From: Amphiscolops sp. MND2022
Taxonomy: Eukaryota
Reading direction: 5' to 3'
Assembly: GCA_964187785.1 (NCBI GenBank)
Contig: OZ076409.1
Span: 930,001 to 994,000, forward strand
Length of the DNA: 64,000 nt
Of this stretch, positions 2,983-22,252 are shown piece after piece. Position numbers and translations under genes: made by a program. How positions within the stretch are numbered: the stretch's first letter is position 1; each line of letters opens with the position of its first letter. The notes under the pieces are model-generated. The model saw only the letters and a list, made by a program, of their open reading frames with translations, had not been told where the DNA came from and made no database searches.

Positions 2983-4797
2983 TGTCATGCCAGCATGATG
3001 GAAATATAATCTACTAAATATCTGTAATGTAAATAATATGTCTTATGTACTTAGATATGGGCAATATGATGTCATATAATAAGATCTATGGTTGTGAGCA
3101 ACCCTACGTTACTTGTACCTAACCCCCCATTCCCCATTGAGATTTTGAGCTATTTACTTATCTAAATACTGAGCATTCTAGTTCCGTTTGTCCGCAATTC
3201 ATGATCGTGCTAATAAGCAAATGATGCTATTTTATATTTAATAGCTTGTCACGAGAAAGGAAAGTAGTCTCTCGGTCAAACTGGACCGCCATAACGAATA
3301 GACAAGATGGATACTCGCTAGGGAACTCCTGCCTCAGAGGAAACTAGCGTGACAAGCCTCCTCTCTTTGGAATACATGAAACGATGAAATAAAGATGCTA
3401 TTAGTGCTAGAACTCGTGATTTGATTCAATCTAACTGGTTTCATCCATATTACATCGCTCAAACACGACCAGAACACCAAAAACGAGAGAATTGAAAAGA
3501 CGATGTAAAAGCGATGAAGCTACTTGATTGAATACTTGTGACCACATGTTTCATCGTTTATGCATCACTCACGCTTCTAAGCCCTGAAGAACAGTGCTAA
3601 ACTAGCGAACGATGGAAAAGCGATGGAAATCTTTCATCGTTTTCTCATCTACAGCTAAAATCACGCTTCTAGACCTGACTACAGTGCTGAACGGCGAACG
3701 ATGGAAAAGCGATGGAAATCTTTCATCGCTTTCCCATCTATAGCAAAAATCATCTTTTAACGATGATAAAGTGATGTAACTACTCCAGAATTATATTCAG
3801 TGCTCTCCCCGTAACTCAGTTCATCGTTTTCACATCTAGTTGATCACTTCAACACTAGAGCGAAGCTCATTCATCATTTCTGCATCCACAGACATACAAA
3901 CAGAATCAACTAGTGAAAACGATGTCTAAACGACAAAACTTGTTATAACTTGCATTTTAATCAGTTCAACGATGAATAAACGACAAAACTTGTCATAATT
4001 TGCCTTTTATCGATTCAGTGCTAGCAAATCATCATTTATACATCCCCGTGCCTCCGAATTTGAACTCTATCCATTTTAGACACTAATTTAGCGCAATTGC
4101 AGTAACTATCATGACTCAGAGAACGCCTGCTGACATTAGTTCATTATAAATTCATGATAATTGATTTGAATTGTGTTATTGCGCAATTGCTAATTGGTAG
4201 CCCTCTTGCGGCATGCAAAACAACCGGTCACGTGACCAAGTGCTAATTAGCACTCACCCGACATCCAATGAGAAGGAAGCGATGGTAAGAATTGCGTCTT
4301 ACCATCGATCTGGTGAGAAGGCTACCAACTAAGACACACGATTTGCTATACCAGCACGATACACTTACATTCTCTGTTAGTTCTACAACACGTATAAAAT
4401 TGCCTTAGTCTTACTACATACTCTCATAATTCAACTCTTATCCGACATTCCTGTTTTTCATTGCTCATGAGTGTCGAATCTACTAAAACACTTCGAAACG
4501 GAAAAGTATTATCTAATTCTTTACCAGAAACTTCCTCGATCGACGCGAATAATATTCCCAATATTAACATGGAATCCTCAAATAATTTCTCAGAAGGGAT
4601 AAGCCGATCGGGTAGGAATTCGCCGACGAACGAAGATCATACTCAAGCGGCGAACGAAGAAAGATTTAATCGTCTGCAAGACGAAATGTCGATACTGAAG
4701 TCTCTGATGGAAAAGATCATCAGTCAAAACGAGGAACGAAACAAGCAAAACGGTGGTTCCTTTGCGACGTCGTCTTACGCCGTAGGGACCTCCAACA
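2983..4797 (+). repeat. 5' LTR (1815 bp)
   Basis: Begins TGTCATGCCAGC, ends GACCTCCAACA. Nearly identical to 17449-19263 (about 14 substitutions counted by eye). Contains an ~90-bp tandem duplication at ~3570-3750. Confidence 0.97.
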
Positions 4798-5948
4798 TGG
4801 TGACAGGAGTCAACAGGACTCACAGAAATCAACGACATCATTTCCAAGACGAAGAAGACGAAGACGACTACGAAGACGCACCCAGCAACACTACGGAATC
4901 TGCACTGCTCAACGCCATCCAGGATCTGCCTCGAAAATTGCAGAAAACCAACACAAAACTTCTTCAAACTCACGTGCCAAATTTCCGCGGATCAAAAGAC
5001 AAATACAACGAGTTCGAACACTTACTACTCAATCATTTCCGCCCCATCGCCAATAAAATCACGGAAGAAGATAAAATCCACTTCTTCCAGAGCTTACTTC
5101 GAGACGAGGCCATCGATTTTTGGCAAACTATCACTATAAGCTCAACAACGACACTGCAAGATGTCCTCCAACTATTCCGAAAAGAATTCGCAAAAGAAGA
5201 CATGAGGGAAGTTGCCAGATACAAATGGAACGAAGCCAAATACGACCCAACCACTCAATCATTCGGAGACTTTCTAAAAGACCTTAAGAAAATCGCCAAA
5301 CAAGCCTATGGCGACGAAGCTGATAAATGTATCAAGATGTTCCTTTTCGGAAAATTACCCGTAGACATCCAACAAGAGCTGACGATGGCTAATAAAGAAG
5401 ACAGCAGCCCTGAAGAGATAAAAACATACCTCCTCCGAAAATACCAATACCAAAACGTTATACAACAATCAACTTCGACATACCAGCCGTTCAACCAGAT
5501 GTCCGATAACAGCACCAAAAAAGAATTCACCCGATCTGACCAATCCCAATCCAAAACCGAGAACAAACAAAAAGGCAAATGTTTCTACTGCGGGAAACAA
5601 GGACATAGAAAACAAGAATGCCGAGGACGACAACGAGATGAGGCTAATGGCACAACCAAACCAGACGCCATACAACCAGCCAAACGACAAGACGACGACA
5701 AACCGAAATACAATCCAAAACTCGTTTGTCAGATTTGCGGATACACCGGACATTCCGCTAGAGATTGCCGAAAACGAATTCCCAAACAAACCAGCACTCC
5801 ATATGGACAACTCCCATACAAACGAACTGACGACCAGGAAAACAAAGAAAGACGACGTGAATTAAAACAACAACAACGCCCAATGAACCAACTGGAAATC
5901 CAAGATGACAACGCAGACCTGTCCTCAGAAGAACAGGATTTTCAGTAA
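4467..5948 (+). CDS. gag: Gag with two CCHC zinc knuckles
   Basis: ORF 4461-5948, first ATG at 4467. Capsid-like core (VPNFRGSKDKYNEFEHLL...LLRDEAIDFW); knuckles CFYCGKQGHRKQEC and CQICGYTGHSARDC. Confidence 0.93.
   Translation: MSVESTKTLRNGKVLSNSLPETSSIDANNIPNINMESSNNFSEGISRSGRNSPTNEDHTQAANEERFNRLQDEMSILKSLMEKIISQNEERNKQNGGSFATSSYAVGTSNMVTGVNRTHRNQRHHFQDEEDEDDYEDAPSNTTESALLNAIQDLPRKLQKTNTKLLQTHVPNFRGSKDKYNEFEHLLLNHFRPIANKITEEDKIHFFQSLLRDEAIDFWQTITISSTTTLQDVLQLFRKEFAKEDMREVARYKWNEAKYDPTTQSFGDFLKDLKKIAKQAYGDEADKCIKMFLFGKLPVDIQQELTMANKEDSSPEEIKTYLLRKYQYQNVIQQSTSTYQPFNQMSDNSTKKEFTRSDQSQSKTENKQKGKCFYCGKQGHRKQECRGRQRDEANGTTKPDAIQPAKRQDDDKPKYNPKLVCQICGYTGHSARDCRKRIPKQTSTPYGQLPYKRTDDQENKERRRELKQQQRPMNQLEIQDDNADLSSEEQDFQ
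4798..4810 (+). promoter_or_regulatory. Primer binding site (tRNA-Leu-like)
   Basis: TGGTGACAGGAGT directly after the LTR-terminal CA. TGG pairs with tRNA CCA, and the rest resembles the complement of tRNA-Leu 3' ends (recalled, not searched). Confidence 0.7.
5936..5942 (+). other. Putative -1 ribosomal frameshift slippery site G_GAT_TTT at the gag/pol junction
   Basis: GGATTTT lies just before the gag stop. The -1 frame is open from here to the protease ORF at 6125. Confidence 0.65.
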
Positions 5949-7282
5949 AGCCACAATTTCACTCCGCGAACAACCAACGTGCGCACCCATACTCTGACTC
6001 AACAACTCACTCTACTCGACAAACTCAACACAATCGTCTTCAGAGGTCTTGGCAGCCCTCTGGTGATTCCCGCAAAGCAGACGAAGTCTATCTGCGAAGA
6101 CACAAACAACCCGATGAACAACCGATGAAGTCGATGAAAACCAACAACAGGTTCACTCCATTGGAAAATTCACACGATGAGCAAACGATGAACTGGCATA
6201 ACGACGCATTGAGGCCTGCGCACGATGCCAAAGAGATGTCCCCACATCTACAATCAACAGACCGACTCTCAACCGATGACAAATCGACAAAACGAATTAG
6301 TAGTAAAACACATGCAAACGACAAGAATAGTATTCCAAAAACTAAAAAACATGCAACCAATAACCAATTTCACGTGCTTAGTCCCACTTTACATTTAAAT
6401 AAAAAGGATAAGATGTTGTTTGTCCCCCTCCAGTTTAACAATTACGAGAACCAAGGTCTTTTAGACACCGGAGCAGTGCAAAGCGCACTCTCAGAAGCGG
6501 AATTACGCAAAATCACCTCTGCTCATCCTGAAGCAGTGCTAGACGAACTACCACCCCCTAACTTTAAAGTTCAGATAGCCAACGGCAATCTAGTCCCAAT
6601 TCGAAAACAAGTTCTTTTGCGCTTTTTCATAGCAGGAAAAGTCTTTGAAGAAGTCTTTTTAGTCCTCCCCACGATGGGAACGATACTGATTGGCATGTCG
6701 TTTTTTGAAAAATACTCTGTCAACCTGGACATTAAAAATCACCTAGTCCATTTCCCTAATCACATGATGTCAATGCAAGTGAGACAACAGACGAATAAGA
6801 AGTTCAAAACTGGGTTAATTGATTTGTATTCCAGCTGCAGAACAATCATCCCTCCCCGCCATCAAGTACTGATTGAGGTCCACAGTGACGCGGACATCTC
6901 ACGTACAACTGGCACGGTCGAAGGGACTCCAGCATTCATGCGCAAGACGTGCCTCTTGGTGTCTCCAGCAGTGGTTGACCTAGACGATGGAAAAACGATG
7001 ATTCAGGTCACCAACCCCAATGAGCACGTGTACACACTCGAGGCCAACACGAACCTGGCCAATTTCAGAATACCAACGCCCCATCAAGCAGCCAACATAA
7101 CGCCGATGCCAGTAGAGCACTTGAAGTTGATCACAGACCACCCCGAGGATGCAGCAGCCGTGATCAATCAACTTTTTGTGAATCCGGAGATGAAGTCTAC
7201 AAAATGGTACCCGACGCCAGAGACGTGTAGTGAGCCAGACAAACTCAACCAGATCGAAAGACTCAAATTTCATTTTCGATGA
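5936..7282 (+). CDS. pol: Pol N-terminal part: aspartic protease plus beta-rich linker
   Basis: LLDTGA protease motif and ILIGMSFF. Separated from the RT frame by a frameshift near 7260-7275. Confidence 0.88.
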   Translation, partial: GFSVKPQFHSANNQRAHPYSDSTTHSTRQTQHNRLQRSWQPSGDSRKADEVYLRRHKQPDEQPMKSMKTNNRFTPLENSHDEQTMNWHNDALRPAHDAKEMSPHLQSTDRLSTDDKSTKRISSKTHANDKNSIPKTKKHATNNQFHVLSPTLHLNKKDKMLFVPLQFNNYENQGLLDTGAVQSALSEAELRKITSAHPEAVLDELPPPNFKVQIANGNLVPIRKQVLLRFFIAGKVFEEVFLVLPTMGTILIGMSFFEKYSVNLDIKNHLVHFPNHMMSMQVRQQTNKKFKTGLIDLYSSCRTIIPPRHQVLIEVHSDADISRTTGTVEGTPAFMRKTCLLVSPAVVDLDDGKTMIQVTNPNEHVYTLEANTNLANFRIPTPHQAANITPMPVEHLKLITDHPEDAAAVINQLFVNPEMKSTKWYPTPETCSEPDKLNQIERLKFHFR

Positions 7283-10200
7283 GATTGTGGCTCTCAGAGA
7301 ACTGGAGAAGCTCGATCCCGCCCGCTCCCATGACGAACGAGTCAAGTTCCTGCAGAACTTCAAGTGGGACGAATCGCTTCTCTCTCCGTCTCAACAAGCT
7401 CAGGTAGAGGAGTTGCTGGTAAAGTACAACTCCATTTTTGCTAGACATCGTTTAGACATCGGCATGAATACTGATTTTAAGGTAAAACTAACTCCCCAGC
7501 ATGAAGAACCAGTTTACTCTCAAAGTCTCCCTACTCCCACTAACCTAAAAGATGACTTGCTTGTAGAATTAGCGTTAATGCAGGAGTACGGGATTATAAC
7601 TACTCTTCCTTGCAGCAAATACTCTTCACCGATATTTGCACAACATAAACCGAATGGTAAACTAAGGATTTTAGTTGACTTGCGGAGAATCAACCACCTG
7701 ATCAAGAACGATTACGGAGAACATAACCACCCCGTTACAACTGTTGCAGACGCTGCTCAGCATATGGCCGGGAAAAAATACTTCTGTAAACTAGATTGTT
7801 CCCAGGCCTACCATTGCATTCCAATGGCCGATGAGCAGTCGATACAACTTTTGTCTTTTAATTTTGGATCACGTACCTTTGCCTTTCTTAGGCTAGCTCA
7901 AGGTCTTAACCGTTCTCTTTCAGCCTTCACGAGCGTAGTCCGTGAGTACTTGGACCCCTTGGTCAAAGCGGACCGCTGTGCCCAGTATGTTGACGACATA
8001 GGCATAGCAGCAAACACGCCTGATGAATTGATTGAAAATTTAGAACTTGTTTTTCAGCAGTTGACCAAAGCTGGATTGAAACTCAGCATGAATAAATGTG
8101 AATTTGGCCAACAGCAAATTGAATACCTTGGCAAATCTATTTCTAGCACCGGAATAGCACCCATCGAAAAACGAATAACAGATTATTTGAAAAAGCTCAA
8201 ACCACCCAATTCAGTTAAAGCTCTCCAACGGTACTTAGGATTTGTCAACTTTTACAGGTCCTATATTCCCCGGTTGGCCGACAAAACAGCCGTTTTTCAC
8301 GAGTTAATCAAAAAAGACACCATTTTTAAATTAGAACAACGCCACAAAGATGTAATTTTTGACATCAACGAAAGTTTACTCAAGGCTACTAAACTGTCAT
8401 TGAAACTTCCCCTCCCGGACAAACAACTAGTAATCATGTGTGACGCGAGTGAGCATGCAGCAGGTTATGTCCTTCTGATAGAAGACTACTCTGAAACACA
8501 ATCGGGTAGCTTAAAGAAGTACGCGCCAGTTGCCTCTGGCTCTAAGAAATTTCAGGGTGGACAGATGTCATTAACAATGTACGCCAAAGAGTTTTTGGCT
8601 ATGCATTTCGCATTCGATGAGTTCGGTCACAATCTGTGGGGTTCGAAGAAGCCTATAATTGTAATGACAGATAATAAAGCACTCACCCGTTTCTTTCAGG
8701 CCAAACACATACCACCGTCACTTTGGAATTTTTGCGACCAGACACTCCAATTTAATTTTATTTTAGCACATGTACCAGGTATCGAGAATCCCGCGGCGGA
8801 TTACCTATCCAGATTGGAAATTAGACCTGAAGAACGTGTTCATTTAAAATTAACTGATTCCATTCCAGTCCATTACATAGAGATCGACATTGCCTCGAAG
8901 ACGCCAAAGCAGGAGGACGATGAACCAGACTACTTCCCTCCAAGCGAACCACTGAGACAGAGGAAGTCACACAATGTAAAAACGATGAAAGTGACCAACC
9001 CTGAGACACTGATGCTCGACGATGGCAAACCGATGAAAACAGTTGACGTGGAGACGACGACAATTAATGACGATGACAAAACGATGAATTGTGTAAAATC
9101 AGCACCACAGGCCTCTGAGAACGACCACACAAGCTGCCCTCAGATCTACCGACTCATGACTGATGATCAATCACCAGTGTACACAAAATTCATCATTAAA
9201 ACATCGTTACTAAACCCAGTAACGAAGGAGGTTAGCCCCTCCGGGGGAGTCGATCTAATTTTAGCTCAAAAAACAAATAGCGACATACAACTGATGTTAA
9301 AAATTTTGTCTGGAGAAACTACCTTGAACCACTCTGTAAACTTGATGTCAATTTTTTTCCAAAAACTTCACAAAATTCGAAAACGCCTTGAAAATGTAAA
9401 CGGAGTCCTGTACCGTATCTTTTATGACCATACAGGCCTTGAGTCCCATAAACAAATTGTTGTACCTGAACAAGTGATGTTAGAAATAATCAGGTTTTTC
9501 CACAACAACCCCGTGCAGGGACACCCTGGTTCTAAAAAGATGCTACATGAACTACGAAAACGCTACTACTCTCCCAGTTTAGCCGAAAAAACACAAAAAA
9601 TTCTAGAAAGTTGTGAAAATTGCATGCGATCAAAATCTACGAATGAATCAAACCTACGCCCGCCGTTGCAGAAGATATACGATCCGTGTAACGGCCCTAC
9701 TGACCTTCTGGAGATAGATATAGTTGGACCACTGCCCGCTTCGAACGGCTTTACCCACATTTTGACCGCAATCGACGTATTTTCGCGTTATATGTTTGCC
9801 GTACCACTGCGTAAACCTGACACAAAGTCTGTTATCAACGCCCTTCTGTCGGTATTCGCCAAACACGCATACGTTCCAACACACATCCTCACAGATAAAG
9901 GATCCGTTTTCACCGCTGAACTGTTGGAACAACTCATAAAAACCGCCGGCATTGAAATCTCCCATGCAACGATAAAACATGCACAAACTATAGGCATGGT
10001 CGAGAGAAGTCATGCAAAACTTAAAAAGATTTTAAAAATACATGTAAATGTAGACAGACCACAATGGGACCGCTATGTCGACATAGCAATCATGGCCCAC
10101 AACACCACGTACCACGCTTCTCTGAAATGTTCACCAACTGAGATCTTTCACGGACGCACTCCATACAACGCTTTGGACCTAAAATACTCTAACCCTGAAA

Positions 10201-11105
10201 GAAGAGTCGACACCAAATTTGGAGACGTCAACGAAATCTTAGACCGCATGAACGAAATTTACCGCGACAACACCGACAACATAGTAGCTGCGTACCACAA
10301 GTACAAAGCTTACTATGACAGAAAAGCCAAAGCCCAACCTCTCAAGGTAAACGACTTTGTTTTCCTACTTGACCCCAAATACGACTCTCAGGGTTGTAAA
10401 GAAGAGTTCAAGACCTTCCACTGGAAGGGTCCGTTCAAAGTGATGAAAGTGCTATCCGACAGTAACTACATCCTTCGGAAAGTAGGAACGTTCAAGACAC
10501 AATGCGTTCATCGCATACGATTGAAAATTTTCAAACCAGAATTCCCTGTAAAAGACGTAGACATTGGTAACCAGCCAGTATACGCTGACACGGATCGCAC
10601 TGAAGACTCTGATATTTTCGACTCGCACGTACCGAGACAACCTGAAACAACCTCGGAACCGGATGAACCAGAAACTGATGAAGAAACACCAGTTGACAGA
10701 GTCATTCGACTAAATTCTCCAGATTACAGACAGGCACTCAGACGCGACAGACCGCTAAATCGACTACCGAACCGACTGTCGTTAACACCACAACCGGAAA
10801 TAATCATCGACGACCCACCTCAAAAAGGCCCACAGGTGCAGTTCAATGAAAACGATGAGATAATTCCACAAGATATCACTGAAGACACATCAAAACCGCC
10901 AAAACCATTAAAAATACCTACCAACACCGAGACACCCCAACAGGTGAACAATGACGAAACGCCAAATCTGATAGCAACAAGGACAAATAAAAGCAAATAT
11001 AGTCTACGCGAAAATCCTCAACCGAAACGCTACTCAGACTTCCTAATTCACGAAATCTCAACTGCTCGAAACGCTCTACGTAAAACAAACACTGTTCTGC
11101 AGTAA
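7230..11105 (+). CDS. pol: Pol: reverse transcriptase, RNase H, integrase
   Basis: RT LRILVDLRRIN / KLDCSQAYH / YVDD; RNase H CDAS...TDNKAL...ADYLSR; integrase H-H-C-C (HNNPVQGH...CENC), IDIVGP / TDKGSVF / VERSH DDE core, GPF motif. Confidence 0.96.
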   Translation: MSQTNSTRSKDSNFIFDEIVALRELEKLDPARSHDERVKFLQNFKWDESLLSPSQQAQVEELLVKYNSIFARHRLDIGMNTDFKVKLTPQHEEPVYSQSLPTPTNLKDDLLVELALMQEYGIITTLPCSKYSSPIFAQHKPNGKLRILVDLRRINHLIKNDYGEHNHPVTTVADAAQHMAGKKYFCKLDCSQAYHCIPMADEQSIQLLSFNFGSRTFAFLRLAQGLNRSLSAFTSVVREYLDPLVKADRCAQYVDDIGIAANTPDELIENLELVFQQLTKAGLKLSMNKCEFGQQQIEYLGKSISSTGIAPIEKRITDYLKKLKPPNSVKALQRYLGFVNFYRSYIPRLADKTAVFHELIKKDTIFKLEQRHKDVIFDINESLLKATKLSLKLPLPDKQLVIMCDASEHAAGYVLLIEDYSETQSGSLKKYAPVASGSKKFQGGQMSLTMYAKEFLAMHFAFDEFGHNLWGSKKPIIVMTDNKALTRFFQAKHIPPSLWNFCDQTLQFNFILAHVPGIENPAADYLSRLEIRPEERVHLKLTDSIPVHYIEIDIASKTPKQEDDEPDYFPPSEPLRQRKSHNVKTMKVTNPETLMLDDGKPMKTVDVETTTINDDDKTMNCVKSAPQASENDHTSCPQIYRLMTDDQSPVYTKFIIKTSLLNPVTKEVSPSGGVDLILAQKTNSDIQLMLKILSGETTLNHSVNLMSIFFQKLHKIRKRLENVNGVLYRIFYDHTGLESHKQIVVPEQVMLEIIRFFHNNPVQGHPGSKKMLHELRKRYYSPSLAEKTQKILESCENCMRSKSTNESNLRPPLQKIYDPCNGPTDLLEIDIVGPLPASNGFTHILTAIDVFSRYMFAVPLRKPDTKSVINALLSVFAKHAYVPTHILTDKGSVFTAELLEQLIKTAGIEISHATIKHAQTIGMVERSHAKLKKILKIHVNVDRPQWDRYVDIAIMAHNTTYHASLKCSPTEIFHGRTPYNALDLKYSNPERRVDTKFGDVNEILDRMNEIYRDNTDNIVAAYHKYKAYYDRKAKAQPLKVNDFVFLLDPKYDSQGCKEEFKTFHWKGPFKVMKVLSDSNYILRKVGTFKTQCVHRIRLKIFKPEFPVKDVDIGNQPVYADTDRTEDSDIFDSHVPRQPETTSEPDEPETDEETPVDRVIRLNSPDYRQALRRDRPLNRLPNRLSLTPQPEIIIDDPPQKGPQVQFNENDEIIPQDITEDTSKPPKPLKIPTNTETPQQVNNDETPNLIATRTNKSKYSLRENPQPKRYSDFLIHEISTARNALRKTNTVLQ

Positions 11106-11200
11106 GTAGAAAACGGCAGAAAACATGTAAAAGACGATCTCACATCAAATCGATGGTTAAATAACACTCCATCGTGAAGAAACAGTAACATTACGAAAAA

Positions 11201-12140
11201 GCGATGTAAATCCGATGGAACTTTTCCATCGGAGCCACATCGCCAGCAATCCACTGAAAAGACCAAAAATGTTTAAATGATGGATCACGCCCACCGTTTG
11301 TACATCCTTACCTTCTCTTTGACCATGCCACAGTAATATGCTGAAGCTTTCTCATCTGGTTATTAGTAATTCGTAGGCCTCGCCTCGTGCCAACTCAGGT
11401 AGGTAACACAGCCGCTAGCACGGTTCACACAAATGTACACATGAAACGATGGAAAACAGATACGCCATCGACCTCTTTAAAACAAAACAGTTAAACGATG
11501 TAAAAGTGCTGGAAATCCTCCATCGTTTCTACATCCCCCTATCTCTCTACACTTACCTTCAATAAAAAGAGAATCAATCCTCAATCGTCAACAGACCATA
11601 GGCTTTGCCTTGGGTTGACTCACGGTTCATTACCGCCCTGATTGAGGACACCGAATACATACAAATAATCCCATTAAAAGGATCATAAAACGCCAAAGAA
11701 TGAGAACGATGAAAAAACGATGGAAATCCTTCATCGTTAACTCATCGTCAAATTCTCCCCAACACAAACGTACCTAGTCATCAACTAAACGATGCGAATA
11801 CGATGAAAATGTTTCATCGTTCTCTCATCGTTGCACTTACCACCAGACGAACCAAACACACTAATCGCAACGATGCCAAAACGATGGAAAATCCCCATCG
11901 TTCACATCACGATACACGAAACTACCTAGAAAGTACTACGATGGAAAAACGATGGAAATTTCCCATCGGTTGCCCATCGCTGATAAAATCCTAAGAAAAA
12001 TTCAACAATCCTCACTCAACGATGGAGTATCGATAAAATCTCTTCACCGATACACCCATCGTCTCCTAAATCAACGCCACACTCACAAAACCCTCCAGAA
12101 CGATGTGATTACGATGGAAATTTCCCATCGCCTACACATC
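11201..12140 (+). repeat. Array of ~45-nt CGATG...CATCG hairpin units with unique spacers, downstream of pol
   Basis: Units start at ~11201, 11494, 11705, 11788, 11869, 11937, 12018, 12099; the last six are 68-83 nt apart. Consensus aACGATG-N4/5-ACGATGgAAAT-N3/4-CATCG-N4/5-CATC(G). Confidence 0.85.
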
Positions 12141-12536
12141 TCTTCAAAAGTACATGAAAACGATAAAAGCATGTAAATAAACGTCCACACATGAAAATTA
12201 AACGAATACATTCTCTGCTAAGCGGAAATACAAACGAAACATGCATTCCAAAAGGTGCTCCTATACCGCCCTATCAAACAACCTTATAAACTGTATATGG
12301 AACAAAAACCAAAACTCAAAGCCCTTACAAATTCCTTGAACTTACTCGAAACAAAAGATCGGAGTAAAAATCAATTACCCACCGAATTACACAGTCTTCA
12401 ATTTAAAATTCTCTCTATCTACAAACGCAAATGGCCAACAATGTTAATACAGTGTAAGCGCTCTGCACTTACCAAACAGAATAAAATGTACATAATCTAT
12501 CAAGTTCACAGTCTAACAAAATAAATATCACGATCT

Positions 12537-15500
12537 TCAAATTCTGTGTTCCCCTCCAATTTCTGGACTTTCAACTCTTCCTCCTTCTACGGTAAAACTC
12601 ATTCGTTCCATAACTGAATCTCGGTATCCATCCGCAGCGACTCCTCCGACTTCCTTCCATAACTCTCCCAAAGTAATAGTCCGCAAATCATTCACTCTTC
12701 CAAGAGCAGCTACACATTCCGCCACTAATCCATCCGGAATACTTTGTAGACTCCTCACTCCACGAGAAGTACACCAACTCAGAACAGTACGGAACATGCT
12801 TGACAATGACTCTGACGATAGACTAGGCAAACCGAAATTATCCAGATTCCAACTCTGGCTGACTCCACCACTCAAACAGAACACAAACTGCATCAATCGT
12901 CTCAAACTCACATTAGTCGCCCCATACTGCCACAATTCGTGCTCATGCCCAGATAAATCATATTCTGCCACGTGGTCATCTCTAAACTGCCCAACAAACC
13001 GCACAAATGAGTCTATCATAGCTGTCTTTTCGGCATACAACACTCGACCACTACACTCTAGAGCTTCGACTAAATAACCGACAGTCTCTTCTAACTCCGA
13101 CACACGTCCATACATCAGAACTTCCGGACTCCAACAACTAAGTGCCATGTTAATTTGATCGGACACCTGCGGCATCTGCAGAAGATTGAGAGCAACTGTC
13201 ATAAAAAATTCTTCGACAACAGTGACTGCATGTTGATATTCCCCCCCACAAGGATAATACACTCGGTGCGACTCAAAAGTTCGAAACATAAGCCCTTCTT
13301 TTGCAGCACTCAAACGAAGACTGCTTAGCCGAAAATTTGCCCAGCGTTGCAATTCGTAAGCTTGAGGTACCGTCCCAGGCTCAGCAACCAGCAGACACAG
13401 CTCACGCACTGCAGCAAATACCTCGTAGACAATGTGTAGCCCTCGATACAATCCTTCACCAAAGGTCCGCTTCATCTTCTCAAACACTAAAACAGACAAG
13501 AACAACGATAACCAACGCGATTACAAGAAACGATGTCTTTCCAATGAATCCAAAGTATTCCTATTTTCTTGTCTTTGTATATCACAGTACTAAAACAGGA
13601 CGATGACGAACAGATGCAACATACCTACAAATCCATAATTATCTTAATAGTACTTCCACCCAACTTAGTTACAAATGAAAAACACCAATAATAACCGATC
13701 GTATACACCAATTCCATAGCATGCAACTTGAGCGACAGTCCAACTTCCTTCGAGATCAGTAGCTCCATCCGCAAGGGATCCACACTTCGAGACACATGGT
13801 CAAGCCGTTCCACCAATGCCAATATGTCGTTCCACGATCCTCGCAACTCGTTTAGTACCGCCACAATTTCCCAATTCGAAATCTCGCCATTCACAGTACA
13901 CTAAAATAAAACACTCAGAAAGTCAGCCTAGCCATAAACATAAAAATCCATACACCCTCCATCCTACACACGAAACCACTCTCACGCTAACAGATCAAGA
14001 TCCCTAACCCATACGACTTAAAAATTACATCAGAAATTCATACTAACACGCAACAATGCAGGACAAGATGATAAGAGGGGATCAGTCATACTATCGCGCA
14101 GTTTCGTCAAAAAGAAGTTCATAACCACATGCACGTCCTGCCCAGGGAACACAGACAATCCAGTCGTAGTAACCACACGCAACAATGACTCCAACTGCAG
14201 TGGATTCACATCCAAACATCTCCGTCCGCCTTCTTTCTCCATTAATCCTCGTATTGAAGGCACTTTTACACAACTGAAACCCACTGGCGCAAGCTCTTCT
14301 GCAAAACAACACCAGTAATCCGCGAGCCACTCTGACATCCTCTCTTCCCAGTCTCTGATAGCTACAAGCTCGAACAACACATACCCTTGCAACGCCTCGG
14401 TGTCCGCTACTGTCACTGAACATCGAACCACATTCCGCTTTAGCTCCAAATAGAAACCAACAGGGCACTCTCCACATAAAGCCATCGAAATAGATCGTAC
14501 CACGTATGGCCATACCCCGAAAATCAAAAGCGCCTAAAACACATGTAAAACAAAATAACCAAACAGAACTAACACCAGCACACCGTTATAACACAAATAT
14601 CACCCTTGTTCTAAGCAAATTCACACATACAAACATGTAACCTATGTAACACATGTATTTCATGTAACATATACTCACAATAACGTCCTCTTTTCGACAT
14701 ACGCCTCCGAAGAGACTCCCGTAGGAAGCATCAGTTGTTGCGACGGAATCCCATAAATCTGTGACGCTCGTAACATCTCCGCCTCGGTAGAGAGCATCGA
14801 CAACGAAACACAGAAACAGACGCAAACTGCGCTCGCTGTCAGGCACTTCGAGTACACCCGAGTCCCAGATACTGCCGCCTCTTGCTTCCGCCGCAAACAC
14901 CTCTTGCACCGAAAAAGCCGGACACACCTCCACATCTGGCACAGATAGACCTCGAATCTCTTCTTCCATGTCCGCTGCTTCCACGGCGCTCATCATTGCC
15001 CCGGTCCTCCGACGCAGAAACAAACCACGCCGAGAACGCACAACGCAGTCTAACTTGTGATGGACCACACCACGACAATGCTCTAGAAAGGTCGAAAGGC
15101 CTCGGCTCCCGACCTTCAGATCACTCCGGCACAGCAGACATCGTACGTACGCATCGGACGACCTATGAGTCCGTGCGAAACCCAGAGACATCCCTGCGTA
15201 CGGATCTTGGAACCAGCTTGCTCTAATGCTGTTCCTTGCAACTAAAACAAAGTTTGATGATAAAACGATGAAACCCCTCGCTCTAGCAGCTAACCCACGT
15301 TCTCCGCTTGCGTAAAACGATGAAAAAACGATGTTTTCACTTAACGCTAACAACAAAATTAGAACGATGAAAAACCGATGTTTCTACTGCAAAAAGCCAG
15401 AAAACGCCCTAAGACGACAAAAGACGGCCACCAAAACGCAAAGTACGAAAAATAATCAAAAACCCGAAAACAAAACTAAAATGTTTAACTAAACACTTCA

Positions 15501-16492
15501 ACCGATAAGTTCAGTAACCTGATAACATTAACATATTGAAATTACGGTGAATCACATGATCCTTGAAGCTGTTTAGTTTAACTGACCGAACGAGACGACG
15601 GGTGGAAACTACAGCATTGTCAACAGATGAACTGCCCCCGTCAGATGTGCTTGATTCATCACCAGCAGACAGGGCTCCTGGAACTACACAACCACCCACA
15701 ACAGCCTCAACACTTGATACACCAGCATCCATCGGAACTTGCTCTTCTGCATCGACGCCTGCTGGATCCATTCGACTGCTGGGTGAAGACTCAATTGAGA
15801 ACTCACGTACTGTTTGTGTGGCGACACTCTGCGGAGCCCCTTCCTGGTCAGAACCACACGCCACAGACATCATGTGGCGAACGACAGGCCTCTCCAAGCC
15901 ATACGCCTCTCGCGGGACTGAAAGCAACAGAGTTCATCATTGTTACATCGCGGAATCCACTTCGCTGACAAAGAGATGAATCTAATGCGAATCCACTTAA
16001 ATTGCTACAACAGGCGATTTAAAACCACGAATACAAACAAAAGTGTCACTTACTGGCACTGGCAAGCTCTTCTCGCATTACATGCCGAAAGTAACCGTCA
16101 TACCAATGCAATGACAGCGACCCAAGAGATTGCTGCCACGGAGAATACACTGAAACGACATCATGAATGAATAACGATGATTGAACGATGGAGAACATAA
16201 GTTGGCACACTTCTCGAAAAGAACGGCAGTCGACTCACTCTGTGGATACAAGGGCATGAACGGCTGAGGTCCCGATGGAGTCTGAATGGGCGTCATGGGC
16301 CCCACCCCCGTCAGTTGGGTATACACCCTAGGGCTCCCAGACCCAGAAGGCGTCGCTTGATCTGCAACAGCTAAACGAAATTTATCCACATTAGAGTTGC
16401 ACCAATCCACCACAGACGTGAAGATGAAGAATGAATAACTAACGAATTGGGTTAGAATCACCGAAAGGATTCATATGTTGGTCGTCATACAT
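12537..16492 (-). CDS. Spliced antisense accessory gene of the retrotransposon (~1016 aa; BED-like zinc finger plus hAT-transposase-like body)
   Basis: Hand-built exons on the minus strand: 16492-16444, 16370-16197, 16149-16054, 15917-15587, 15306-14679, 14533-14048, 13900-13629, 13589-13525, 13486-12537. All introns GT-AG, all phases compatible, 3051 nt with no internal stop. The 5' exons are less certain than the last five. Confidence 0.8.
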
Positions 16493-17448
16493 CTTGACGA
16501 TGACAAATGGAAACAACGATTGCAATCTGAAAGAAAACACGACACGATTGAAAGAAGGATAGTAAATGTGAACTCAATTTGAAGAAACGAAATCAACAGT
16601 AATCGACAAATATAATGGCCTGATCAACCGTGATATGAGATCGATTTCAACCTTAAAATATCAAAGAAGCAAAACGTTTCGACTACATCTAACAATACAC
16701 TCTCAAAAGACAAAAAATCTGCTCAAAATTCTTCAATATTGATTCAATTTCACTGCCTCCTTCCACCAACTAGCAGAGGAAACACCAGTTTGAATGGACC
16801 AATTTACTCAAAATACTGTGGAAATTTTCTCAAAGTGTTAGATGCAGCTGCCAGCGTCGTTAGCAATTTGAATGATTTACACACTCAGCGGAAAGACGCA
16901 CTCGAAATTGTGGCTACTTTATTTACTTAATAACTCATCAAGATAACTGAACGTTTCCGTCTCGCACACAGTTGGCATTACTGCCGCTCCACCACGCAAG
17001 TTATTACATAATATTTTGTTCACGCTTATTCAACTCTCCATCACAAGTTCATCGCTCTCCGGTCACGTGTTATTCATTCTCTCCAATCTATCAGACGAAA
17101 CGATGCTACCAATTCCAATTGTGAACAAATTCCAGCGAGATTCTACAAATCACTCCTGACAGCTATTTTCAAGCCGATCTGCGGACAATCGACGGGCCAA
17201 GAACTAGAACTGACGCGTCCAAACTTAACCGAAATAACCGAGCTCACACCAGATACCAAACCGATGAAACACGTCTCCTTCTCAGAGAAGACACAAATGA
17301 GACAGAACCAACGAAGGCACAAAACCATTGAGAACCAACGAAGGCCACTCCCCTGAGACCAGCGAAGGAACATGTCAAAGCCCACGCTGCGACAACCATC
17401 CTCTGCACATTTGGCCCCTGCACTCCTCTTCCAAATTCCCCCCGGGAG

Positions 17449-19263
17449 TGTCATACCAGCATGATGGAAATATAATCTACTAAATATCTGTAATGTAAAT
17501 AATATGTCTTATGTACTTAGATATGGGCAATATGATGTCATATAATAAGCTCTATGGTTGTGAGCAACCCTACGTTACTTGTACCTAACCCCCCATTCCC
17601 CATTGAGATTTTGAGCTATTTACTTATCTAAATACTGAGCATTCTAGTTCCGTTTGTCCGCAATCCATGATCGTGCTAAAAAGAAAATGATGCTATTTTA
17701 TATTTAATAGCTTGTCACGAGAAAGGAAAGTAGTCTCTCGGTCAAACTGGACCGCCATAACGAATAGACAAGATGGATACTCGCTAGGGAACTCCTGCCT
17801 CAGAGGAAACTAGCGTAACAAGCCTCCTCTCTTTGGAATACATGAAACGATGAAATAAAGATGCTATTAGTGCTAGAACTCGTGATTTGATTCAATCTAA
17901 CTGGTTTCATCCATATTACATCGCTCAAACACGACCAGAACACCAAAAACGAGAGAATTGAAAAGACGATGTAAAAGCGATGAAGCTACTTGATTGAATA
18001 CTTGTGACCACATGTTTCATCGTTTATGCATCACTCACGCTTCTAAGCCCTGAAGAACAGTGCTAAACTAGCGAACGATGGAAAAGCGATGGAAATCTTT
18101 CATCGTTTTCTCATCTACAGCTAAAATCACGCTTCTAGACCTGACTACAGTGCTGAACGGCGAACGATGGAAAAGCGATGGAAATCTTTCATCGCTTTCC
18201 CATCTATAGCAAAAATCATCTTTTAACGATGATAAAGTGATGTAACTACTCCAGAATTATATTCAGTGCTCTCCCCGTAACTCAGTTCATCGTTTTCACA
18301 TCTAGTTGATCACTTCAACACTAGAGCGAAGCTCATTAATCATTTCTGCATCCACAGACATACAAACAGAATCAACTCGTGAAAACGATGTCTAAACGAC
18401 AAAACTTGTTATAACTTGCATTTTATTCAGTTCAACGATGAATAAACGACAAAACTTGTCATAATTTGCCTTTTATCGATTCAGTGCTAGCAAATCATCA
18501 TTTATACATCCCCGTGCCTCCGAATTTGAACTCTATCCATTTTAGACACTAATTTAGCGCAATTGCAGTAACTATCATGACTCAGAGAATGCCTGCTGAC
18601 ATTAGTTCATTATAAATTCATGATAATTGATTTGAATTGTGTTATTGCGCAATTGCTAATTGGTAGCCCTCTTGCGGCATGCAAAACAACCGGTCACGTG
18701 ACCAAGTGCTAATTAGCACTCACCCGACATCCAATGAGAGGGAAGCGATGGTAAGAATTGCGTCTTACCATCGATCGGGTGAGAAGGCTACCAACTAAGA
18801 CACACGATTTGCTATACCAGCACGATACACTTACATTCTCTGTTAGTTCTACAACACGTATAAAATTGCCTTAGTCTTACTACATACTCTCATAATTCAA
18901 CTCTTATCCGACATTCCTGTTTTTCATTGCTCATGAGTGTCGAATCTACTAAAACACTTCGAAACGGAAAAGTATTATCTAATTCTTTACCAGAAACTTC
19001 CTCGATCGACGCGAATAATATTCCCAATATTAACATGGAATCCTCAAATAATTTCTCAGAAGGGATAAGCCGATCGGGTAGGAATTCGCCGACGAACGAA
19101 GATCATACTCAAGCGGCGAACGAAGAAAGATTTAATCGTCTGCAAGACGAAATGTCGATACTGAAGTCTCTGATGGAAAATATCATAAGTCAAAACGAGG
19201 AACGAAACAAGCAAAACGGTGGTTCCTTTGCGACGTCGTCTTACGCCGTAGGGACCTCCAACA
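17449..19263 (+). repeat. 3' LTR (1815 bp)
   Basis: Begins TGTCATACCAGC, ends GACCTCCAACA, followed by TSD CTAAT. Confidence 0.97.
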
Positions 19264-19286
19264 CTAATAGCGCCGCTTTAGCGTAA
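18933..19286 (+). pseudogene. Copy of the gag N-terminus carried in the 3' LTR, running into flanking DNA
   Basis: Matches the first ~110 gag codons (MSVESTKTLRNGK...AVGTSN), then diverges at the LTR end. Confidence 0.9.
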
Positions 19287-19686
19287 GCGAGGGATTACAT
19301 TAGCGGAAATGAGTTAGCGAAATACAAATTAACTAGCGACCGCTTAGCAATGGCGTTTTCCTAATTTTCCATAACAACGCTTGATTTTGCATCGAACATT
19401 ACACACAAATCACAACTTGTCTCTCCATTTACTGATTCCTCCCAAGAACTGTTATATATTATCATTTATTTATCTTTACTATGTTTTAAACATAGTTCTA
19501 CACAGTAAACAGTAATGAATTATTTTTCAGATGGATTTTTAAACATAATGTGAATTGAACTTTTCACTGAAGATTTTAATTAGCGTAAGCGATTAGCGAC
19601 TATCAATTAGCGAAGTTAGCGATTAGCGATATATAATTAGCGTTAGTTAGCGATTATCGAAAAAAAATTAGCGAGTGAAATCTCTG
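19269..19686. mobile_element. Older MITE-like element with TTAGCG repeats, interrupted by the LTR element (left stub 2958-2982)
   Basis: Left stub catagatttgacgctaat resembles the reverse complement of the right end attagcgagtgaaatctctg. Many ttagcg repeats in 19269-19680. Confidence 0.6.
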
Positions 19687-20849: not shown

Positions 20850-22252
20850 TTCTCCATTGACCAGAAAATCCCAGATGATTGGAACATAGCTGTCATTATC
20901 CCGTGCTATAAAAAGGGAGACAAAGCCAAATGCTCCGACTACCGTGGAATCAGCTTGATCGCCATTGCCCTGAAGGTTCTTGAAGCGGTCATCAAAAACC
21001 GTTTGGAACCATCTTACACGAACGCTGCCCGGATAAACTAAGCCGGCTTTAAGAAGGGTGGCGGCAAATACTGAAACAACGATATCAGTCCAGTCGATGG
21101 ACCGTCCTAATCTTTATCAGTTTCAAGGCGGCCTTCGACAGCGTTAACCGAGAAGCTCTCTGGACAATACTGTCGAACCTCGACCTTCACCCCATCATCA
21201 TTAACATCCTAAGAACCATGCAGGCAAAAGCAACCAGGAAAGTACGCGTAACCAACACCCTCTCACGCGATTTCGAAATAGCGAACGGAGTACGTCAGGG
21301 ATCAATAATTGGCCTATTTCTTGTTAACCTGGCGATTGATTGGATCATGCAAAACGCCCTTTGTCATGGAATACATGGTATTAGTCTAGACGATACGTAC
21401 GTGCCGTACCTTGACTTCGCCGATGATATCTGTCTTCTGGATGACAACGCCGAAGATGTTCAACCCTTACTCGTTAGTGTTTTCCATCAGCCCAAAAATT
21501 TCGGCTTGAAGATCAACGCGTCAAAGACCAAATTCTGCTCCATTGACCCCAACATCAATATCACCTGCTCTGGCGAACAACTGGAAAGAGTAGAAACATT
21601 CACCTACCTTGGCTCATCGATACAACCTGATAGCGACATCGCAGGAGAAATTAAACTCCGTTACGCGAAGTCTCTCGGCTCGATAAAGAAGCTGATAAAA
21701 TTCTGGCGTAGTCGCAATATTTCAACAACGATCAAATCAAAAGTTCACCACGCTTGCATCCGGAGCTCCCAACTGTATTGCTGTGAAACGTGGCCACTCA
21801 TAACATCTGTTATTAAAAAACTGGCAGCTTTGAGATCAGATGCGCCAGATCCATTCTCCACCCTAGTCGCCCCATCAAGACTTCTGACATCCGTGGAAAT
21901 CTTCAACTCGATAGCAGCGTCTCCAGGACCATCCAGAAGGACAGACTGAAATGGCTTGGTCATGAACTCCTCCATGTCCCCACTACTCTTCCAAACTCCG
22001 CCCTAGAAAAGGGACCCGACTGGACACGTCCCAGGGTCGGCATGAAGTCTGGTGAGACCTAGTCAAAGCGGATCTCAGCTCCATCCTCAAACCCGTGAAA
22101 ATGAATAAAGAAGTCTGGGACGCAGAATGGTTCTCGTTGGCCAGCGACGCGGCAAGAAACAGGCGCCAGTGGAACGCAATTATTCGTGACGTGCAAGAGG
22201 CGGGCAATGGGCAGTGACTGCTTGATACGCCCTAACTGGAACTGGAACTGGA
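20850..22252 (+). mobile_element. 5'-truncated, degenerate RTE-like non-LTR retrotransposon (LINE)
   Basis: PDDWNIAVIIPCYKKGDKAKCSDYRGISL, GVRQGS...NLAIDWIM, LDFADDICLL, FTYLGS, YCCETW. Stops and frameshifts present. 3' tail of (AACTGG)x3 at ~22233-22251. Confidence 0.88.

Follow-up and report, generated by a model that had tools for sequence, protein, structure and literature searches.

A 64-kb stretch of the genome of the animal Amphiscolops sp. MND2022 (contig OZ076409.1 of assembly GCA_964187785.1, positions 930,001 to 994,000; hereafter the window) holds a complete 16.3-kb Ty3/Gypsy long terminal repeat (LTR) retrotransposon at 2983-19263, which carries, in addition to gag and pol, a gene on the opposite strand that encodes a candidate zinc-finger protein. 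The hexamer ACGATG, scattered through this element, was found to be half of a larger direct pair of GATG cores whose starts lie 11 bp apart. This phased pair, GATG-N7-GATG, occurs 51 times in the window, 50 of these inside the element, against an expectation of 1.55 and a maximum of 6 in 100 dinucleotide shuffles. Comparison with related families suggests that the sites are maintained by selection, and a self-recognition circuit of the kind formed by the transposon protein VANC or the foamy virus protein Tas, in which the antisense finger protein would read the pairs, is a plausible explanation for them, if somewhat short of a probable one.

The phased GATG pair

An earlier description of the element made from the letters alone (the sequence-only reading) had proposed that ACGATG saturates it, and the hexamer was found at every place named there, each site being checked. 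It lies in hairpin units of the LTR (3609/3635 and 3698/3724, with further sites at 3760-3969), in the linker between gag and protease (6174, 6185 and 6222), in the linker between RNase H and integrase (8982, 9019, 9070 and 9081), where the repeats encode KTM/KPM as seen in the translation of pol, in the 3' array (11446-12111), and near the antisense gene (15265-15364). The hexamer is also rarer in the flanks, as had been supposed: the element of 16.3 kb has 50 copies, the remaining 47.7 kb has 8, the "outside" of all window-wide counts being this flank of one 64-kb window; its complement CATCGT occurs 17 times inside and 7 times outside. The count of k-mers inside versus outside that had been suggested as a check places ACGATG at the top of the enriched 6-mers. 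When one LTR is counted, 43 copies in 14.5 kb stand against 8 in 47.7 kb (Poisson p 6e-37), and a first-order Markov simulation of the element gave an expectation of 4.5, with no more than 11 in any of 200 runs. Part of this multiplication came about by tandem duplication, with an 89-bp period in the LTR at 3569-3752.

The larger unit emerged from the spacing of the hexamers. A second CGATG starts exactly 11 bp after the first in 17 cases in the element and in 15 cases in a 78%-identical relative; 44.7 kb of flank contain no such case. For the shorter GATG core, the non-redundant element contains 22 plus-strand and 17 minus-strand pairs at spacing 11 (39 in total), and each of the other spacings of 5-10 and 12-20 bp is represented by 0-2 pairs. 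The spacer within the pair is A-rich, and the 50 pairs of the element are divided into 27 plus and 23 minus. The sole pair of the window outside the element is located at 417-431.

The pairs were followed through four families of the host genome, which has a size of 1.07 Gb and yielded 187 first-look candidates for the array and 2165 for the finger exon of the antisense gene. Family A comprises the window copy and copies 95-98% identical to it, and family B shares ~78% nucleotide identity. Families C and D have reverse transcriptases (RTs) 85-88% and 77% identical in amino acids and LTRs of ~2.2 and ~1.8 kb, respectively; the comparison drew on one to three copies of each of B, C and D. The number of pairs per non-redundant element is 39 in A, 38 in B, 56 in C and 49 in D. 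In C and D the pairs are arrayed with 60- and 70-bp periods, nearly all of those in the LTR being on the minus strand and those after pol and 5' of the finger exon on the plus strand.

The sequence-only reading had regarded the LTR repeats as hairpin units. Such units do exist in the LTRs, yet each of them consists of two direct sites followed by two inverted ones, in the layout CGATG-N6-CGATGGAAA / TTTCCATCG-N6-CATCG with convergent spacings of 14, 25 and 36 bp, and they are absent from families C and D. Convergent arrangements at these three spacings number 25 in A, 23 in B, 0 in C and 0 in D, so the unit common to the whole clade is the direct pair rather than the hairpin. The hairpin as the functional unit is ruled out by this absence and by the spacers of its arms, which are non-complementary.

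The CpG that had been taken as part of the motif turned out to be a feature of certain families only. In A and B, 74-77% of half-sites have a C before GATG, a share that falls to 27-41% in C and D, while the core and the spacing stay constant; the half-sites of C and D thereby rule out the CpG as an essential site component for the whole clade. CpG is undepleted in the window element, at 0.047 per base with a GC content of 43%.

Retention of the sites was assessed at two depths of divergence. Between A and three B copies, which amount effectively to one comparison because they are closely related to each other, the cells that retained ACGATG/CATCGT numbered 18 of 30 for the LTR (0.30 for all 6-mers), 38 of 63 for the 3' array (0.29), and 13 of 27 for the antisense region (0.09). 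No excess of retention was present in the gag-pol coding part (22 of 45 cells versus 0.48), and in the short stretch 5' of the 3' LTR none of 6 was kept. Between A and C/D, the synonymous sites of gag-pol are saturated (proportion of synonymous differences, pS, 0.72-0.78), and four of the eight coding-region pairs of A nevertheless hold their aligned position in both C and D, against a background of 0.074 for 4+4 identical bases. All four lie in poorly conserved linkers, and the three pairs of the gag-protease linker occupy the same aligned place in C and D. In the arrays, the GATG cores are kept while spacers and flanks diverge. These comparisons of sequence support the view that selection has retained the sites, whose conservation from one diverged family to another exceeds background.

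The pairs are located in U3, in three coding stretches of low conservation, in an array after pol and beside the finger exon. The U3 part of the 5' LTR has an array of 12 pairs (3383-4044) in alternating orientation, ~60 bp apart, which includes the 4-site palindromic units at 3611-3649 and 3700-3738, and its copy in the 3' LTR holds 11 pairs (17849-18510). A plus-strand TATAAAA read from the sequence at 4393-4400, 350-1000 bp 3' of the U3 array, is a putative TATA-like promoter box. The gag-protease linker pairs (6113-6127, 6176-6190 and 6224-6238) are situated in the N-terminal, poorly conserved linker of the protease frame, which bears another pair at 6986-7000. The linker between RNase H and integrase contains pairs at 9021-9035 and 9072-9086, and two minus-strand pairs (7446-7460 and 9191-9205) lie elsewhere in the RT-RNase H-integrase frame. 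After pol follows an array of 12 pairs (11203-12140), most of them in ~46-bp units that join two direct sites to two inverted ones and recur with a period of about 80 bp. Three plus-strand pairs starting at 15256, 15319 and 15366 (15256-15380) adjoin the finger exon on its upstream side, in a candidate intron (15518-15242) or in the promoter, and families C and D have six pairs with a 70-bp period at the equivalent position. A few further pairs occur singly, among them those at 15935-15949 (minus) and 16176-16190 (plus), close to possible upstream exons of the antisense gene.

The antisense gene

Comparative evidence from the sequences indicates that the antisense gene is a real multi-exon gene under purifying selection. 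Between A and B, frame-specific conservation marks at least four minus-strand blocks, 15248-14643, 14542-14033, 13909-13679 and 13463-12537, and maybe more up to 16350. The gene model built on this conservation and on candidate splice sites is provisional: GT..AG candidates fit two junctions, and the donor of the third block was not pinpointed. The gene is found in all four families, always alongside the pairs.

The zinc-finger exon (14679-15241, minus strand; candidate acceptor 15242 and donor 14678) is the best-conserved block, with 76% amino acid identity to B over 202 amino acids and ~50% to C and D; compared with B, it shows a proportion of nonsynonymous differences (pN) of 0.10-0.14 and a pS of 0.71-0.79. 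The other antisense exons reach 24-34% amino acid identity with C and D. Two middle coding blocks with open frames (14533-14048 and 13900 to ~13628, minus strand, within 13628-14533), whose frame-specific conservation is 54-65% in amino acids, are joined by a candidate GT..AG intron at 14047-13901. The last exon (12537-13520, minus strand) stays open for 327 codons up to a stop at 12537-12539 and has a pN of 0.26-0.27 and a pS of 0.68-0.76 relative to B; no known domain was found in it, and its 25 relatives are unnamed. Possible upstream exons on the same strand at 15514-16350 are uncertain, consisting of a frame rich in serine and acidic residues (15933-15519) and weaker blocks (16350-16222 and 16165-16028) with a weak frame preference and 50-72% amino acid identity.

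Synonymous divergence between A and B differs along the element, being saturated in the antisense exons (pS 0.68-0.79) and 0.26-0.49 in gag, protease, RT and integrase. The 3' module may therefore have had a separate older history, through recombination between lineages, or it may have evolved much faster; either would account for the difference.

Searches placed the antisense protein in no named family. A Pfam scan of seven antisense frames matched no family, and for the last exon the ESM Atlas returned only low-recognition matches to clusters of viral RNA-dependent RNA polymerase (recognition 1958, ~130 shared features), which were taken as noise. An exhaustive HMMER search of 1.84 billion representatives gave 97 matches, nearly all of them short unnamed open reading frames (ORFs), the exceptions being two spurious repeat proteins and one 564-amino-acid protein with weak zf-BED and ZNF592-like matches; no longer homologue of the antisense protein was found. 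Judged by these sequence matches, the protein belongs to no named family.

A larger superfamily of finger-exon genes was also observed in the genome. It comprises 3894 first-look candidates, obtained with a query ~25% identical to the window exon, and many of them have open frames of 200-480 codons.

Candidate readers of the pairs

In the circuit proposed here, two GATG cores whose starts are separated by 11 bp, or one helical turn, would form one bipartite DNA recognition site. A reader protein would bind it either as a pair arranged head to tail or through two reading heads that face the same side of the helix. Selection would retain such sites and tandem duplication would multiply them. The likeliest reader would be the element's own antisense CCHH finger protein, and the circuit may mark all copies of the family and regulate them, the effect being either activation of the LTR promoter with feedback on the antisense gene or counter-silencing. 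We infer that the sites are bound, that they are read at the DNA level, that the antisense protein is the binder, and in which direction the effect would run.

Each step has its own grounds. A sequence-specific protein reader is suggested by the one-turn phasing, by the conservation of the cores amid drifting spacers, and by the isolated linker pairs that were kept. Recognition of double-stranded DNA rather than of a single transcript is favored by the mixed orientation of the pairs and by the inversion between LTR and interior arrays in C and D. Transcriptional control is suggested by where the arrays lie: the densest is 5' of the putative promoter, and another is at the antisense gene, site clusters adjoining the finger exon in A (15256-15380), C and D. 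Besides Gag and integrase, the antisense finger protein is the only sequence-specific candidate encoded by the element, and it is favored as the reader because it is always present with the pairs, because its finger is the most constrained part, and because the modest shift at the -1 base follows the split between A/B and C/D.

Several results weigh against this circuit. The GATG core is unchanged between A and C/D even though their finger exons are only ~50% identical, which a host factor would fit equally well, and the co-occurrence of gene and pairs in four related families reflects linkage and does not count as independent evidence. Six of the eight coding-region pairs of family A are sense-oriented, which leaves room for a role at the RNA level. 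Two remote paralogous finger genes of the same genome, ~25% identical, were examined over ~3 kb each (L057, C6:15207231-15210324; L058, C5:68739603-68742624) and show no arrays in the 2 kb upstream of their finger exons; this result neither supports nor refutes co-evolution of protein and motif because the LTRs of the paralogues fall outside these stretches.

The class of the finger belongs with these points. Its residues are W12 and F13 followed by C37-x2-C40-x16-H57-x5-H63, and then by a basic stretch and a helical bundle. W12, F13, C37, C40, H57, H63 and H64 are invariant in families A-D, and C37, C40 and H57 are nearly invariant across 30-31 more distant relatives, with H63/H64 after them (H-x5-H). 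The BED signature, as reported by Aravind 2000, is Cx2C-Xn-Hx3-5[H/C] with conserved aromatics before it, and the finger agrees with this zinc signature, including the upstream aromatics. The sequence-only reading had linked the finger to BED domains, an identity that is not established. The finger exon matched no Pfam family at E <= 0.1, and zf-BED (PF02892), the only Pfam family recurring among the relatives, appeared at E <= 5 in 6 of 31 of them, the best value (0.0045, 17.4 bits) lying below the cut-off of 20.6. A search of PDB sequences with the finger profile gave 0 matches at E <= 10.

Confident AlphaFold models (pLDDT 84) predict a beta-beta-alpha finger with a long helix after it. Foldseek returned nothing at E <= 0.001 for both models, its match to ZBED3 (TMt 0.58) being non-significant at E 1.7. 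The nearest neighbors of the finger in VIA-align were TUT4 (Z 5.4), SF3A2 (4.4), TUT1 (4.2) and JAZ (3.0), which are RNA-binding fingers of the U1/matrin type, and the BED domains of ZBED1 (Z 2.4), ZBED2 (Z 2.4) and Hermes (Z 2.2) ranked under them, all of these scores being weak and within the range that the tool calls common. With the 190-residue model, the matches listed by VIA-align were helical-bundle ones to residues 132-190, none of them informative on the finger. The models are thus consistent with a CCHH finger whose subclass, and whose preference for DNA or RNA, cannot be read from structure.

A serious rival, possible though rather unlikely in our estimation, is that the pairs serve a host transcription factor, such as one of the germline or early embryo exploited by the element, as arrays of enhancer or insulator type, and that the antisense protein is unrelated to them. 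The densest array lies in U3 5' of the TATA-like box, the usual place of host-factor sites in LTRs, and Drosophila gypsy reportedly carries 12 clustered sites for the host zinc-finger protein Su(Hw). The constancy of the GATG core and of the 11-bp spacing across families whose finger exons are ~50% identical also speaks for such a factor. Against it, the 47.7 kb of flanking host DNA, admittedly a small stretch, contains 1 pair only, and pairs are kept in coding linkers and by the finger exon in all four families, where they would be superfluous for an LTR enhancer. The preference for C before GATG, moreover, differs between A/B and C/D, which is unexpected, though possible, for a single factor.

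A role at the RNA level is quite improbable. GAUG pairs or hairpins of the genomic or the antisense transcript would then be bound by the knuckles of Gag, the antisense finger, or factors for export or packaging, or the hairpins would feed small-RNA pathways. Consistent with this are the sense orientation of 6 of 8 gag-pol pairs, the two CCHC knuckles of gag, the imperfect ~46-nt palindromes of the A/B units, which would fold, and the RNA-binding U1/matrin-type folds (Z 4.2-5.4) nearest to the finger. Yet the hairpin arrangements number 0 in C and D, where direct pairs outnumber those of A and B, and the hairpins of A keep their GATG cores while the 6-nt arm spacers are non-complementary, the opposite of structure-driven conservation. 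Owing to the mixed orientation, with the LTR arrays of C and D opposing the internal ones, no transcript has all sites in one sense, and the 11-bp phase agrees with the helical repeat of B-DNA.

Functionless amplification, in which slippage during replication or a switch of template spread a short unit whose copies were then inherited, is very improbable: it would explain the plain tandem repeats of the arrays (89 bp at 3569-3752; 60-70 bp in C and D), but not the isolated coding pairs outside tandem repeats that keep their position despite saturated synonymous divergence, the conservation of cores in arrays whose spacers and flanks diverge, or the enrichment of the 11-bp spacing alone.

For the circuit with the antisense protein as its reader, a precedent exists, since transposon proteins that recognize their own motif are known experimentally from plant DNA transposons (VANC). 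The VANC/VANDAL system of Arabidopsis, formed by Mutator-like DNA transposons, would be the closest working analogue. According to the part of the source drawn on here, VANC21 binds a short motif densely arrayed in its own transposon, introns included; VANDAL elements carry a 9-base motif in one orientation in their own non-coding DNA, with arrays that grow by tandem duplication; and VANC protein and motif co-evolve (PMC5735166). The present element resembles this system in having a short motif dense in its own DNA (50 of the 51 window pairs, tested against the 47.7-kb flank), in the growth of the motif by tandem repeats (89 bp in the LTR; 60 and 70 bp in C/D), and in encoding within the same element an accessory protein with a conserved core and a fast-evolving remainder. 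The sites at 15256-15380 by the finger exon parallel the VANC targets in introns and upstream regions described in the same part of that source (PMC5735166). The element differs in being an animal LTR retrotransposon whose accessory gene is antisense and intron-bearing, and in a site that is a strictly phased pair present in coding linkers as well; no VANC homology was found for its protein, which has no Pfam match.

The closest structural analogue is found in plants, in the Retand lineage of Gypsy elements. Like the present element, its members separate pol from the 3' LTR by a long stretch (6.3 kb here) with an antisense gene for a putative nucleic-acid-binding protein and tandem arrays. The element differs from Retand in its animal host and in its antisense frames, which gave no match to Transposase_28/TRP28 (PF04195); its arrays share one bipartite motif with the LTR and the coding linkers, a feature that the portion of the Retand literature used here does not report. 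No animal LTR element that combines an antisense DNA-binding gene with matching site arrays was found among the papers that the literature searches listed, which does not prove that none is in print.

Among DNA-binding BED fingers, the hAT transposases Hermes and Ac bind subterminal repeats, and the BED-DNA structure of Hermes (8eb5) was among the entries of the structure search. The likeness of the antisense protein to BED fingers lies in the Cx2C...Hx5H pattern with the aromatics W12 and F13 and in multiple clustered sites. BEAF-32B, a BED-finger protein, recognizes CGATA in clusters (PMC5021357). The A/B motif CGATG is one base off from it, a likeness that is suggestive only. The differences are that zf-BED is sub-threshold in the 6 of 31 relatives and has no match in the window protein, and that no transposase domain follows the finger.

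Retroviruses offer a further comparison. Foamy virus Tas/Bel1 is a transactivator with sites in its own LTR and internal promoter, and HTLV-1 HBZ, mentioned in PMC11963269, is an antisense retroviral gene. The circuit proposed here would share with them a regulator of its own element that acts on the LTR and on an internal or antisense promoter, and the element shares the placement of an antisense accessory gene in the 3' part. There is no relation in sequence or fold, and the gene is intron-bearing and part of an endogenous retrotransposon family that numbers thousands of copies.

A broader claim, which we regard as doubtful, is that a giant animal Gypsy clade runs its own circuit, with an intron-bearing antisense gene, a new class of CCHH finger and phased binding at ~40-55 sites spread in each element over the LTRs, the coding linkers and the antisense gene's own intron. 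The protein would tag every member and activate it or shield it from silencing, as a counterpart of VANC, and such systems would have arisen independently in plants, fungi and animals. If this were true, animal LTR retrotransposons could bring along a transcription or anti-silencing factor of their own and the arrays of sites that it binds, and the long pol-3' LTR regions with antisense genes and repeats in several kingdoms would be accounted for. With two GATG cores at an 11-bp distance, the pairs would then also offer an unusually clean DNA code to an orphan family of zinc fingers that has thousands of copies in the genome. If a host factor reads the sites instead, ~50 phased sites per element in many copies would constitute a large sink or a regulatory network.

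Layout of the element and its surroundings

The bounds 2983-19263 proposed from the letters alone are correct, being set by the LTR pair, the TG..CA ends and a CTAAT target duplication read directly in both flanks (2978-2982 and 19264-19268). The 5' LTR (2983-4797) and the 3' LTR (17449-19263), both on the plus strand, are 1815 bp long, and their local alignment has 14 mismatches and zero gaps over 1815 columns, with ends TGTCAT...CAACA. These LTRs and the target duplication, together with the CCHC knuckles of gag and the order protease-RT-RNase H-integrase, identify the element as Ty3/Gypsy.

The gag ORF (4468-5948, plus strand) encodes two CCHC zinc knuckles (zf-CCHC, PF00098, E 1.3e-6). Its frame is open from 4398 and its ATG at 4468 is within the 5' LTR, so that the 3' LTR repeats the first 110 gag codons (frame 18864-19286) and the coding frame includes the putative primer-binding site TGGTGACAGG..., which starts at 4798 past the LTR end. 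The protease frame (5909-7282, plus strand) matches gag-asp_proteas at E 7.8e-5, under the Pfam cut-off. The RT-RNase H-integrase frame (7194-11105, plus strand) has Pfam matches to RVT_1 (E 1.1e-23, residues 151-313), RT_RNaseH (E 3.4e-14, residues 408-514), Integrase_H2C2 (E 1.7e-13, residues 757-815) and rve (E 2.2e-14, residues 834-926). In the stretch that separates pol from the 3' LTR, the 6.3 kb at 11106-17448 hold the post-pol repeat array and the multi-exon gene of the opposite strand.

The element was inserted in a short-unit repeat, GCTAATCGCTAAT lying directly 5' of the insertion (2950-2982), and on its 3' side ATTAGCG-type tandem repeats with 7-, 16- and 31-bp units occupy 19579-19674. 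A separate RT fragment on the plus strand (21053-21949; RVT_1, E 3.2e-18) is situated outside the element and has no GATG pairs in or near it. In a search of the host genome for let-7, neither it nor the control gave a match. Elsewhere in the host genome, cadherin repeats gave 47 matches past the Pfam cut-off, which mark the host as an animal, with clusters at C3:21.52-21.58 Mb, C9:30.95 Mb and 49.50 Mb, and C1:60.28-60.47 Mb, where open frames extend up to 1831 codons. Because these repeats cluster within very long open frames, the sequence suggests that the host carries clustered large-exon protocadherin-like genes.

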